From a virus (Duplodnaviria > Caudoviricetes): a DNA stretch of 62,843 bases. Shown here in pieces: positions 25,281 to 53,775 of the stretch. Below the pieces are notes generated by a model. The model ran no database searches, was not told the origin of the DNA, and worked only from the letters and a program-made list of their open reading frames with translations. Position numbers and translations under genes: made by a program. Each line of letters opens with the position of its first letter. Position 1 is the stretch's first letter. Location: IMG/VR virus record IMGVR_UViG_3300010362_000001, positions 1 through 62,843 of that record; one strand, written 5' to 3'.

Positions 25281-25520
25281 TCATGCGCGTCTCCGTTTCT
25301 GCGGTCGCTTCGGCCGCGGCGCCATCATGGCTTCCTGGTCGAGCAATTGCTGCATCGCCAGCTTGGTGCGCTCGGGGAGCGGCCAGCCTTGCTCGTACCG
25401 TATGATGCTGTGGCGGCTCAGTCCAAGGCGCTCGGCGAATTCACGTTGCGACAGGCCAAGCCGCGCGCGCGCGCGCTTGACGAAATCAGGCATCGGCACT
25501 TCGATCACCGGCATCGACAT
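25281..25520 (-). CDS. Xre-family HTH regulator
   Basis: RARLGLSQREFAERLGLSRHSIIRYEQG. Confidence 0.85.
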   Translation of the reverse strand: MSMPVIEVPMPDFVKRARARLGLSQREFAERLGLSRHSIIRYEQGWPLPERTKLAMQQLLDQEAMMAPRPKRPQKRRRA

Positions 25521-25560: not shown

Positions 25561-25577
25561 GTCGCATGATGCGACCA
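25561..25577. promoter_or_regulatory. Palindromic operator O1 (GTCGCATGATGCGAC) within the putative promoter of the Xre gene
   Basis: 7-1-7 palindrome just 3' of CTTGCG on the minus strand; 17-bp exact inverted copy at 31387-31403. Confidence 0.7.
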
Positions 25578-26399: not shown

Positions 26400-26789
26400 T
26401 CACAAGGCTTCGATCTTGCACTGCTTGAGCTGCAGGTCGCCGAACGTGACATCGTCGATGATGCCGCTGACCTGGATGCGCTGGCCCTTGTTCCACTCGA
26501 CGATCTTATCGAGCAGAGTCTGATCGGTGACGGTGCAATCGACGTTTCCGCCGATGCCACCATTGCCGATGTTCACACGGTAGCCGCCGCCGAACAGTCG
26601 AGCCCTGGCGTTGTGGAACGTCCAGGTGAACGCGATCGACTTGCCAGCGTAGTCGCGCGCGAAGCGGACTTCGTTGGCCTTGTAGGTGCCGATGGCTTTT
26701 TCGATGTCAGCCGGACCGTAATCGGCAGCCGACGCGTTCGACGCCGCGGCGATCGTGACGGCGACAAAGGCAAGCAAGAACTTTTTCAT
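26400..26789 (-). CDS. Secreted OB-fold protein (tRNA_anti-like family)
   Basis: Signal peptide; Y.ANEV.....Y.GK.I, C.......KGQ.I.V.G......L..C. Confidence 0.7.
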   Translation of the reverse strand: MKKFLLAFVAVTIAAASNASAADYGPADIEKAIGTYKANEVRFARDYAGKSIAFTWTFHNARARLFGGGYRVNIGNGGIGGNVDCTVTDQTLLDKIVEWNKGQRIQVSGIIDDVTFGDLQLKQCKIEAL

Positions 26790-29925: not shown

Positions 29926-30945
29926 TCACTGCATGAGCACGGCGCTGTTGTTGACGGCCCAGGTTGAATAGGCCGGCGTGTCCTTCAGCGTCGCGTCGCG
30001 CACGGTCGCATCGTGCACGAGCAGAACCTGCTGCTCGGCCGGAAGGCGATCGGCATACTTGATGATCTGGCTCCAGTTCTTCCGCGTCGCGAGACGCGCA
30101 AGGCCGGTGCAGACCGCGTATTTTTCGCTCGGCTCGACCGGCACCTTGGCGCCCATCGGGTCGCGTACGATGTCTTCGAGCGAACCGAGTGACCGATAGA
30201 GCTGCAGGAAGCCTTCCAGCTCCGCGGCAACGTCGTCGCCGATATGCGCCGCGAACAGCCGCTGGCGATGTGCCTTCGGCGCGTTCACGTGCTCGGCGGC
30301 CCGGGTCAAGGACCGCGCCGACGGGAACGCGTTCTCGTCGCCGCGCGGTGCCCGGTAGATCAGTTCGCGCCGGAACCGCACGAAGGCGACCATCTCCGGC
30401 GCGACGTTGTTCGCCGTGGCCCAGGTGGCCCAGGCCGCGACGTCCGGCGTCACATAGAGATGGGCGAAGCGGTTGCGGATATGCGTCGGCATGCGCTGCG
30501 CCGCGGCACGGTCAGTGACGCGGTTGCCGGCGGCGATCACGCGCCAGCCTTTCGGCAGGCGATAGTCGCCGACCTTGCCTTCGAGGATCAGGCCGGCGAG
30601 CACCGCTTGCATTTGCGGCGTCGCTTGGTTGATCTCGTCGGTGAACAGGTAGCCATCGGCGCCGTCGCGCTCGGCTTGCGGCAGCTCGTCAGGCACCAGC
30701 CACTTGGTCGTGCCCGTCGCCAGATCCGCAACCGGGATGCCGCGCAAGTCGACCGGCTCGCGCAGCGCGGCGTGGAACTCAAGGACCGTGCGGCCCTTGC
30801 GTTCGCCAAGCTGGCGCACGATCGAGGATTTGCCAACGCCGGGCGGGCCCCAAAGCATGACGGGCGCGCCGGCATCGGTCAGAAGTTCGAGCAGCACCGC
30901 GGCTTCCGCAATGGTGCACTCGATTTCTCGGAGAGTGTTTTGCAT
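29926..30945 (-). CDS. MoxR-like AAA+ ATPase
   Basis: Walker A GPPGVGKS, DLRGIP, Walker B LFTDEINQA, AAGNR, NRF. Confidence 0.92.
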   Translation of the reverse strand: MQNTLREIECTIAEAAVLLELLTDAGAPVMLWGPPGVGKSSIVRQLGERKGRTVLEFHAALREPVDLRGIPVADLATGTTKWLVPDELPQAERDGADGYLFTDEINQATPQMQAVLAGLILEGKVGDYRLPKGWRVIAAGNRVTDRAAAQRMPTHIRNRFAHLYVTPDVAAWATWATANNVAPEMVAFVRFRRELIYRAPRGDENAFPSARSLTRAAEHVNAPKAHRQRLFAAHIGDDVAAELEGFLQLYRSLGSLEDIVRDPMGAKVPVEPSEKYAVCTGLARLATRKNWSQIIKYADRLPAEQQVLLVHDATVRDATLKDTPAYSTWAVNNSAVLMQ

Positions 30946-31038
30946 TTTCGGACTCCATTGATGTTGCGCCGTTGCAAGACGGCGCGTGTTGCGAGGCAAC
31001 ACGTTAGAGCGGCGCCAACCGGGCGCCGCTCGGTACGT
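30946..31038 (-). repeat. Structured intergenic element, copy 1 (with one extra small hairpin)
   Basis: gactcca / gcgccgttgcaagacggcgc / gagcggcgccaaccgggcgccgctc. Confidence 0.8.
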
Positions 31039-31275
31039 ATTGTCTTTAAGAGTCTCTCAGTCCCCCACACTCTCGCGTGGGTCTTTCATCCCCTGCACCC
31101 GCAAGGCGCGCGCGGGTCTTTGTCGAGGGATGACTGTGGCCGTTACCTCGGGCTGGCATGGGCCGGTGACCGGTTCACCATGCTCCCTCGGGCTCTACCA
31201 TCCGGGCTTCGTTCCGGTACGCGGGCGGCGCGGGCGTTTGTCAGTCCTGAAAACCTCCGTTGTCTCAACGACAAC
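31039..31275 (-). ncRNA. Putative structured leader RNA of the MoxR operon
   Basis: No minus-strand ORF of 60 aa or more starts above 31070; many nested helices, including a GAGA tetraloop stem; lies between the promoter and the first gene. Confidence 0.55.
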
Positions 31276-31279
31276 CGAG

Positions 31280-31308
31280 ATATAGTGTAGCATGGTGCAA
31301 CATGCAAG
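31280..31308 (-). promoter_or_regulatory. Sigma70-type promoter CTTGCA-N17-CTATAT with operator O2 (31287-31301) in the spacer
   Basis: Near-consensus rhizobial RpoD promoter; spacer GTTGCACCATGCTAC matches O1 at 12/15. Confidence 0.8.
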
Positions 31309-31386
31309 AGCCGGCGAAGATTTTTTTTGATTTATTAAGTCCCGGAAAAATATAGAGATTTCAGACGCCGCTGCGTATTTTCAGTA

Positions 31387-31403
31387 TGGTCGCATCATGC
31401 GAC
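31387..31403. promoter_or_regulatory. Palindromic operator O3
   Basis: TGGTCGCATCATGCGAC, exact reverse complement of 25561-25577. Confidence 0.65.
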
Positions 31404-31865
31404 CTGCTTGCGCCGCCGCGGCGCGTGGTAGCGACGTAGGGGCGGCGGCGGGGAGTCGACCAGCGTCAGGAAATCTGCCGGCTGGCAGTGCAGCGCTCGC
31501 GCGGCGAGTTCGGTGAATTCATGATTGAGGCGGATGCCGCCATTCTCATACGCGCTGATGGTCTTGCGGCTCTTGCCGGTCTCGCGGGCGAGCCATCCCT
31601 GTGAGCGGCCGCGGTCCTCGCGGATGGCCTTGAGCCGGCGCCCGATGCGCTTGCTTCCCCCCGGTGGCGACGTCGCCTTGTCGTCGAGCGGCTTCAGCTT
31701 GGCGCGCGCATGGCGGCGGTGGGCGAGGCCGTCATACGCCTTGGCGATCTCCAGCATGGTTTCGACGATATGGTTGTCGTTGCCTTTGTATTTGCGCGCA
31801 ATCACGCGCGCCTCGGCGGCACGCTCTGACCAGTCGAGCTGGATGAGCTTTCCGACCTGTGGCAT
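31395..31865 (-). CDS. Xre HTH regulator with an N-terminal helical-hairpin domain
   Basis: RLKAIREDRGRSQGWLARETGKSRKTISAYENG; N-terminal W.ERA.EAR...ML.IA..YD.LA. Confidence 0.75.
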   Translation of the reverse strand: MPQVGKLIQLDWSERAAEARVIARKYKGNDNHIVETMLEIAKAYDGLAHRRHARAKLKPLDDKATSPPGGSKRIGRRLKAIREDRGRSQGWLARETGKSRKTISAYENGGIRLNHEFTELAARALHCQPADFLTLVDSPPPPLRRYHAPRRRKQVA

Positions 31866-53439: not shown

Positions 53440-53775
53440 TTACAGGGCGCGCATGAATTCAGCGTCGCCGAAGACGACGACGACCGGGCCGACCAGCACG
53501 TCGATCCGTTGGGCCGGTTGCAGTCCGGCGTGCCACAGCATCGTCGCCATCTCGTTCACCGGCAGGTCTTTCATCTTGCCTTCTTCGTCGCAGAAGGCGG
53601 CGCAGCGTACGAGGCGATCGGCGGCGCGGGACGGATAGCGCGTGAAGCCCGGCACTGCCTCAAGCCAGCCGCCGTCGAGCATGGCCTTCAGCGTTTCGAG
53701 ATCGGGCACCGCCGTGAACGTGGTCACGGTCGGCGCCATGTCGCCCGGCCGATAAAGATGCGCTTCGCCGTGCAT
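53440..53775 (-). CDS. DUF3846-like protein
   Basis: GGWLEAV, CDEEGK...LPVN..AT, D.LVG.VV. Confidence 0.75.
   Translation of the reverse strand: MHGEAHLYRPGDMAPTVTTFTAVPDLETLKAMLDGGWLEAVPGFTRYPSRAADRLVRCAAFCDEEGKMKDLPVNEMATMLWHAGLQPAQRIDVLVGPVVVVFGDAEFMRAL

Follow-up and report, generated by a model that had tools for sequence, protein, structure and literature searches.

The window, by which we mean the whole stretch of DNA analysed here, is a complete phage genome, a viral record 62,843 bp long that carries direct terminal repeats. On its minus strand lies an operon whose first gene encodes a MoxR-like ATPase (29926..30945, ATG at 30945-30943; Pfam AAA_5, E 2.2e-7), followed by genes for a DUF3150 protein, a DUF2201 metallopeptidase/VWA protein and a small membrane protein and by two more small ORFs. 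A canonical terminator near 26045-26010 marks the end of the operon. Upstream, an Xre-type helix-turn-helix (HTH) gene occupies 31916-31395 (minus strand), and the 449 nt between this gene and the MoxR operon hold no convincing gene on the minus strand. The genomes of related phages are otherwise tightly packed.

Promoter-like site, 5' inverted repeat and coding content

The intergenic region contains a promoter-like site on the minus strand (31279..31307), with a -35 box TTGCAT (31307-31302), a 17-nt spacer, a -10 box TATATC (31284-31279) and an A-rich tract upstream. The HTH gene ends 88 nt before the -35 box, and about 336 nt separate the -10 box from the MoxR ATG at 30945. A TATA(T/A)(T/C/A) box, located by eye, likewise heads the leader in 10 out of 10 related leaders. 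The boxes of the near-consensus promoter that the original prediction placed at 31280-31308 are there; a consensus promoter scan, whose rule demands a T at position 6 of the -10 box, did not list the site. We consider the leader promoter TTGCAT-17-TATATC plausible and infer that transcription starts from it. In most relatives (L013, L015, L011, L006, L012, L016 and L010) a conserved motif, TAACC(C/T)ATTGAT(T), precedes the -10 box by about 40-90 nt and may correspond to the IHF consensus; the window has no such motif there.

Four nucleotides after the -10 box begins an inverted repeat, GTTGTC-GTTGA-GACAAC (31259..31275, minus strand; arms at 31275-31270 and 31264-31259), of which this is the only copy in the genome. 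Because of this spacing, a normal start site would cut into the 5' arm, and the repeat may therefore be a DNA operator and not an RNA hairpin. The letters of the GUUGUC/GACAAC fold proposed for the 5' end of the RNA are present, but the transcript probably lacks part of the 5' arm. Putative targets of the HTH protein (31916-31395) include this inverted repeat (31275-31259), the direct repeats described below and GGTCGCATSATGCGACC palindromes. Additionally, a 15-nt palindrome, GTCGCATSATGCGAC, has exactly two copies in the window: one at 31389-31403, where it overlaps the HTH stop codon ahead of the leader promoter, and one at 25561-25575, past the far end of the operon and about 40 nt upstream of an ATG at 25520 (minus strand). 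They could serve as a pair of operators or, alternatively, as weak terminators.

Open reading frames on the sense strand of the leader do not exceed 63 aa, one 99-aa ORF runs antisense, and a PHROG scan of five leader ORFs returned no match, in agreement with the view that some 330 nt without a credible ORF lie between the promoter and the first AUG. Nor does the leader carry a remnant of the small genes of relatives: tblastn with 47 ORFs that 8 relatives have in the interval from leader to MoxR, a few of them reaching into MoxR or containing it, gave as its best match 20 aa of a MoxR N-terminus (E 0.006 in a 520-nt database), which is not convincing. ARAGORN called neither a tRNA nor a tmRNA. 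That the leader encodes a small protein or a leader peptide is suggested by a perfect GGAGG at 31258-31254 and by open frames of 32-63 aa on the minus strand, but no ATG, GTG or TTG follows the GGAGG within 5-10 nt, no frame has the GGAGTC motif of the operon, and the frames, like the DNA itself, are not conserved. With the empty PHROG scan, these points make a coding function highly improbable.

Motifs, local repeats and predicted fold of the leader body

Every motif listed in the original prediction, the repeated AGCCCGAGG included, is found at its place on the minus strand. The 5' part of the 241-nt leader body holds UUUUCAGGACU (31243..31253), the predicted long-range partner of the first ribosome-binding site (RBS), AGUCCGAAAA (30954-30945; pair probability ~0.89), and CTGACAAACGCCCGCGC (31228..31244), the first copy of a GACAAA-N2-CCCGCGC repeat (repeat D1). 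Further downstream, two direct repeats of AGCCCGAGG (31194-31186 and 31154-31146) flank the hairpin GCAUGG...CCAUGC (31183-31156). The 3' part contains GGTGCAGG (31099-31092) and, at the border of the body, GACTCTTAAAGACAATAC (31037..31054), which has a weak anti-RBS and a weak boxA likeness and includes GACTCT (31054-31049); at this position relatives have GACTCC...GACAATAC.

The local repeats of the leader are real, because the only exact genome copies of AGCCCGAGG and of the 13-nt AAAGACCCRCGCG stand here: both copies of AGCCCGAGG in the whole genome are in the leader, 40 nt apart, and so are both exact copies of AAAGACCCRCGCG, 35 nt apart. Each AAAGACCCRCGCG copy forms the 5' arm of a hairpin, and a third, looser copy of the repeat, GACAAACGCCCGCGC, lies at 31242-31228. 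The pentamer GACAA, picked after boxA had been seen, occurs four times in the leader versus 0.51 expected (reached in 1 of 1000 shuffles). Elsewhere in the window, at 47912-47872 (minus strand), CAAGACCCGCGCG reproduces the AAAGACCC repeat with one mismatch, and a short hairpin and then GGAGTCC come after it; this site is antisense to a plus-strand gene block.

The multi-branched fold had been drawn by eye, and part of it is recovered computationally. More specifically, the centroid fold of 31202-31055 contains the proposed junction (31058..31136), closed by CAGTC (31136-31132) and GACTG (31062-31058), with all three inner helices: ATCCCT/GGGGAT (31131-31126 / 31093-31088), which encloses the hairpin ACCCGC/GCGGGT (31117-31112 / 31102-31097), and the GNRA-looped hairpin CCCACGC-GAGA-GTGTGGG (31081-31064). 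The two junction hairpins, the ACCCGC/GCGGGU one and the GAGA-looped one, are related in that both start with AAAGACCC. For the upstream element, in which GCATGG/CCATGC (31183-31178 / 31161-31156) was to enclose GGUGA/UCACC, the motifs exist, but GGUGA (31179-31175) overlaps GCAUGG by two G residues, so the helices compete and could not both form in full; the minimum free energy (MFE) structure instead places CCGG/CCGG inside the GCAUGG/CCAUGC helix.

Fold energy does not set the body apart. The MFE z-score is -3.55 for 334 nt that include the hairpins of the downstream module (0 of 100 shuffles), and -1.76 for the 241-nt body, with 10 of 200 shuffles folding equally well (-1.66 in a second run). 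Across 31 other 241-nt windows of the genome the mean z is -0.87 (sd 1.31), and six of them reach -1.76 or below; the fold stability of the body is ordinary for its own genome. This test is also blind to a class of related leaders (type A, see below), whose z ranges from 0 to -1.6 despite covariation, and it argues neither for nor against a structured RNA. The multi-branched fold is accordingly possible but unsupported: its junction appears in the centroid prediction, its stability lies within the genome background, and covariation lends it no support. Evidence for a structured noncoding RNA is weak, and drawing a multi-branch fold by hand, in DNA this rich in G+C, does not amount to evidence of one; the value of this part of the analysis is mostly negative.

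No known RNA family matches the region, as had been expected of a novel RNA. At the gathering threshold, the 4227 Rfam models gave no match in the whole window and none in 10 related loci; in E-value mode, the best match within 30800-31500 was sraL, with 15.3 bits versus 39 needed (E 0.64). Any function of the leader would therefore be new.

Relatives of the leader were sought in several collections. A 'distant' blastn search with the leader against 50,697 phage records found no match, and by tblastn the MoxR relatives of cultured phages stay below 60% identity (29-35% among the 25 matches listed). Loci of closer relatives were found by pattern-seeded scans with the MoxR protein or an alignment, which yielded 4 and then at least 30 loci in viral contigs, at least 17 in metagenome contigs and one weak locus in genome contigs. 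MoxR identity of the operon relatives is 54-72%, with none above 72% among the loci recovered. Against these loci, blastn with the leader matches the 3' module only, and no k-mers are shared with related leaders beyond GC-rich low-complexity words. Local alignment of the body with 10 leader bodies gave z-scores near 0 except for L011 (z 4.2 over a 40-nt stretch, by mononucleotide shuffles); the likeness to L011 was set aside as unproven, the only other match of its pattern in viral contigs being a coding region (L129). The pattern TTGACAATTCG..CATAGTC occurs in 45 stretches, of which four are real, all on contigs already recovered. A single-sequence covariance model of 31202-31055 finds only itself, with no match in 24 related loci.

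The homologues hoped for upstream of phage MoxR genes were thus found for no part of the body, in neither the 24 related loci nor the phage collection; relatives keep neither its sequence nor its fold, and to that extent a structure conserved among homologues is lacking. A second soil run holds an identical copy of the leader with no variant inside (a single A>G change at 31358 lies upstream of the promoter), and no RNA run is listed as containing the leader sequence. To judge from these comparisons, the leader body is an orphan sequence among the collections searched.

The hairpin and GGAGTC module and its pairing with the leader

The last ~90 nt of the leader (30946..31031, minus strand), adjoining the 241-nt body, are the first copy of a module that recurs through the operon. 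This copy consists of the hairpins GAGCGGCGCC/GGCGCCGCTC (31031-31007) and CGTGTTGC/GCAACACG (31003-30985), a hairpin with a CTTGCA loop (30985-30966) and the first RBS motif, GGAGTC (30956-30951). The general order is one or two G+C-rich hairpins, the CTTGCA-loop hairpin, about 10-20 nt, GGAGTC and the start codon, and the same module stands before each of the first five genes, through the gene starting near 26788 (CTTGCA-loop hairpins at 30985-30966, 29875-29855, 28902-28882, 27292-27276 and 26832-26815, minus strand). GGAGTC with a preceding hairpin is found at five start sites, all in this operon, and nowhere else in the genome. The intergenic hairpins have no U-tracts and are therefore not obvious terminators; the sole canonical terminator is the one at the end of the operon.

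The modules of relatives are strikingly conserved: stems vary, while the loop is constant, CTTGCA(A/G/C), and is followed by (T)GGAGTCAC. Written as RNA, the consensus over the window and all related loci is C/U-UUGCA-A/C/G followed by (U)GGAGUC(AC). Read as the 7-nt CUUGCAA, the loop has the form of the anticodon loop of tRNA-Ala(UGC), and the UUGCAA of several relatives is palindromic, which could permit loop kissing. Just past the terminator, at 26005-25945 (minus strand), lies a sixth, gene-less module copy, in which the hairpin CGCGCGA-CCTTGCAAA-TCGCGCG is followed after about 30 nt by GGAGTC with no start codon; it looks partly tRNA-like, but ARAGORN did not call it.

The closest analogue in print concerns this module, the 3' ~90 nt of the leader, and not the orphan body. 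In the portion of the source available to us, the SAS/ESAS elements of Cluster K mycobacteriophages are described as a conserved asymmetric RBS motif of a subset of genes with an inverted repeat upstream and a variable spacer (PMC3203893). The module shares with them an RBS motif placed after an inverted repeat; it differs in that the sequences are unrelated, that conservation falls on the CTTGCA loop and not on the variable stems, and that a single operon contains the motif.

Two kinds of pairing between leader and module had been proposed, one with the RBS and one with the loop. For the RBS, the predicted helix between UUUUCAGGACU (31253-31243) and AGUCCGAAAA (30954-30945) invites a model of translational or stability control in cis, in which the MoxR start would be masked until the helix is opened; the same helix would close the whole leader into one domain, and 5' structure may protect the mRNA. 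Partition-function folds are consistent with such a model, as they have the first RBS of most phages paired to a remote part of the leader: for the window this has the high pair probability given above, and for L007, L048, L012, L013 and L011 the partner is GACUCC (p 0.66-1.0). Several versions of the leader also have GACTCY a short distance before the first module. However, 25 of 40 shuffled bodies of the window pair the RBS as well, with similar results in the other 10 leaders, and the energies of leader-RBS duplexes are at chance in all 11 leaders (z -1.45 to +1.87). The GACTCC box is, moreover, common by descent among leaders, so its occurrences are not independent. We rejected the anti-RBS idea on the chance level of both shuffled leaders and duplex energies, and the suggested pairing of GACUCU with the GGAGUC RBS is likewise at chance level; translational control in cis is, in our view, doubtful.

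Pairing with the loop fared somewhat differently. The leader segment GGGUGCAGGGG (31090..31100, minus strand) can pair with the CCUUGCACC loop that two intergenic hairpins farther down the operon carry, with a duplex energy of -16.3 kcal/mol against CCUUGCACC (z -4.0, equalled in 0 of 300 shuffles) and a z of -3.3 against ACUUGCACC. The proposed pairing of GGUGCAGG with the repeat loop is in this sense above chance here, although only two of this phage's four loops show it and the remaining two do not. In six relatives (L007, L014, L013, L011, L012 and L015) the loops tested show no comparable excess; the best of them, L015, reaches z -1.78 (14 of 300 shuffles).

These figures bear on the proposal of a processed RNA acting in trans. 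P1 C4 and P4 CI are processed antisense RNAs from operon leaders, and an RNA cut from the window leader could likewise pair with the loops or RBSs of the operon and regulate its genes jointly. The position of the leader and its short complementarity to repeated sites downstream in the operon resemble these systems, and the confinement of hairpin-preceded GGAGTC sites to five start sites of one operon would suit such a regulator. Unlike C4 and CI, the leader has no Rfam match (any C4 model there included), and its complementarity covers two of four loops, is unmatched in the relatives tested and does not extend over the RBS, where pairing is at chance. The G-rich strand is also buried in predicted helices. 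A C4/CI-like trans-acting RNA is, with loop pairing confined to this phage, unlikely, and we see only a slim chance for it.

The same slot in sister phages and candidate functions of the leader

All 10 related leaders that could be delimited are long, their first start codon lying 318-520 nt past the -10 box (336 in the window), and most of them cannot be aligned with each other. The window leader is non-coding, long, positionally conserved and made of local repeats, and it has no known family or homologue among the collections searched; its fold and function we infer. Five of the related leaders (L006, L007, L014, L048 and L011), here called type A, have three elements in common: the boxA-like TGCTGTTTGACAATTCG, a three-helix hairpin and CCATAGTCG. 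A covariance model of type A returned, at E<=10, its four building sequences and L011 as a new match. The hairpin covaries among the four sequences: 7 of 15 pairs changed on both sides and 93% of cells are paired, a result equalled by 0 of 500 shuffles, and slid controls collapse. The element, nut-like in its arrangement, spans L007:3216-3306, L048:280-370, L014:3022-3112, L006:2164-2254 and L011:2717-2826; its hairpin has a conserved GUCCAHA loop, and no Rfam family matches it.

The type-A box GCTGTTTGACAATT is exact in L007 and L048, with near-variants in L014, L006 and L011, and is identical over 14 of 14 nt to a box about 223 nt upstream of the 16S gene in L126; another rrn box matches the type-A motif over 12 of 12 nt. 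For this comparison, the 16S loci of 30 Pseudomonadota genomes were scanned with a loose pattern 150-270 nt upstream of 16S, which found an rrn box in 14 genomes (the other 16 had no pattern match or too short a flank), and a boxA matrix was built from the 14 rrn-leader boxes. Type-A boxes score 15.9-22.5 bits, versus a maximum of 12.7 bits over all 62.8 kb of the window. Antitermination leaders of the nut and rrn kind combine a boxA, bound by NusB/NusE, with a boxB hairpin, and the order of boxA and hairpin in type A is also that of lambda nutR, where CGCTCTTA is followed by GCCCTGAAAAAGGGC. On this likeness we conclude that type-A leaders are putative nut-like antitermination leaders.

The window leader lacks this element. 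On the boxA matrix its best score is -0.1 bits, in GACTCTTAAAGACAATAC, a level reached by 0.56% of genome positions; CTGACAAACGCCCGCGC has no boxA matrix score, and the type-A covariance model does not match the leader at E<=10. A boxA in the window leader is rejected on this basis, the gapped likeness of GACTCTTAAAGACAAT to boxA being one seen by eye only. The leaders of L010, L012, L013, L015 and L016 also hold no boxA by the matrix, and boxA is therefore not general to the slot. Short likenesses to type A, again by eye, are the spacing of TGACAA, 36 nt from the -10 box as compared with about 40-54 nt for type A, and the presence of CCACAGTC at the place that CCATAGTC occupies in type A. CTGACAAACGCCCGCGC lies at about the promoter distance of boxA in type-A relatives and keeps only the TGACAA half; the leader also has predicted hairpins.

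With lambda nut and rrn leaders, the window leader shares its place, after a promoter of early type and ahead of the gene that opens a long operon, and with nutR also a GNRA-looped hairpin and the 6-mer CTCTTA, which ends the nutR boxA CGCTCTTA. It differs from them in having no boxA, and no N-like protein was identified. It also misses the gamma-proteobacterial boxA consensus GYTCTTTAANA, which the accessible part of one study gives together with a C4T/T6C double mutant that abolished function (PMC5725501); according to an excerpt of another, NusB/NusE recognise 8 nt of boxA (PMC3177189). In the literature excerpts available to us we found no work on boxA or nut elements in phages of Alphaproteobacteria.

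We tentatively favour, with low confidence and by analogy, a cis-acting elongation-control leader in the nut-like slot of the sister phages, because that slot, which a promoter of this kind and the module likewise delimit in type A, holds a boxA and a covarying hairpin; this argument from position is an analogy and not a test. The MoxR-AAA / DUF3150 / VWA-metallopeptidase operon would then have an untranslated leader of ~330 nt, of which the body is the first two-thirds from the 5' end; this body would consist of orphan, locally duplicated G+C-rich hairpin units, namely the AAAGACCC pair of hairpins and another hairpin flanked by the AGCCCGAGG repeats, running into the first hairpin and GGAGTC module copy. 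Working in cis on its own transcript, it would help RNA polymerase to traverse an extended untranslated region and an operon full of hairpins, by antitermination or protection from Rho. In favour weigh the absence of coding, the long leaders in all 10 relatives, the boxA and covariation of type A, the TGACAA spacing, the GACAA excess and the unique repeats. Against it weigh the missing boxA, type-A model match and homologue, the ordinary MFE z, hairpins that lack U-tracts, the five other leaders without boxA and the lack of a Rho loading signal, as the leader has no strongly C-rich, G-poor stretch and an unremarkable C/G profile.

Nearly as likely, and possible to our mind, is that the leader has no dedicated RNA function and is a spacer grown by local duplication and decay of hairpin units, whose functional parts are DNA sites: a palindromic operator covering the start site, and short direct repeats with a spacing of 35-40 bp to which a phage regulator such as the upstream HTH protein would bind. 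The inverted repeat GTTGTC-N5-GACAAC, unique in the genome and 4 nt past the -10 box, suits this explanation, as do the direct repeats at 35 and 40 bp in their only exact genome copies, the Xre-type gene ending 88 nt upstream of the -35 box, a body sequence kept in no relative and a fold energy ordinary for the genome. A mere spacer is, however, harder to reconcile with leaders that stay long in all 10 relatives, in compact genomes, and with a lineage under RNA-level selection in the same slot; the repeats are also 5' arms of hairpins, so duplicated RNA units fit them equally well.

If the leader does control elongation, it would, without boxA, have to work differently from type A, either without protein factors, as HK022 put does, or with the help of a phage protein bound to the twin hairpins. 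The put RNA of HK022 is a factor-independent antiterminator RNA of two stem-loops that acts in cis on RNA polymerase, and lambda (nut) and HK022 (put) carry non-homologous antitermination RNAs in one genomic slot. The boxA and hairpin of sister phages lend indirect support, by analogy, to the put-like antiterminator of the original prediction. Like put, the window leader would be a cis-acting leader just downstream of a promoter, has two adjacent predicted stem-loops (31121-31064) and would be a non-homologous replacement of the nut-like site in the slot of its relatives; it may differ in that the 5' arms of its two hairpins are alike. An elongation-control leader without boxA would be a second natural example of RNA-only antitermination and would mean that such modules are also exchanged among phages outside the lambdoid group.

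A bolder version, which we regard as quite improbable, is that this uncultivated soil phage group swaps non-homologous antitermination RNAs in one slot, the window's being of a new put-like class with twin AAAGACCC hairpins. One lineage would use a copy of the host rrn boxA with a hairpin, while the window RNA would be factor-independent and act on an operon with a CUUGCA-loop hairpin before every gene.

The more solid by-product is the nut-like boxA and hairpin of the sister phages, whose match to an rrn boxA hints at a host group and which suggests a function of the slot that can be tested. Outside the leader, at 53688-53771 on the plus strand of the window, the type-A hairpin model has a weak match (16.8 bits, E 0.12) with no boxA, probably due to chance; most base pairs of its three helices are retained, and an ORF of 150 aa encloses it.
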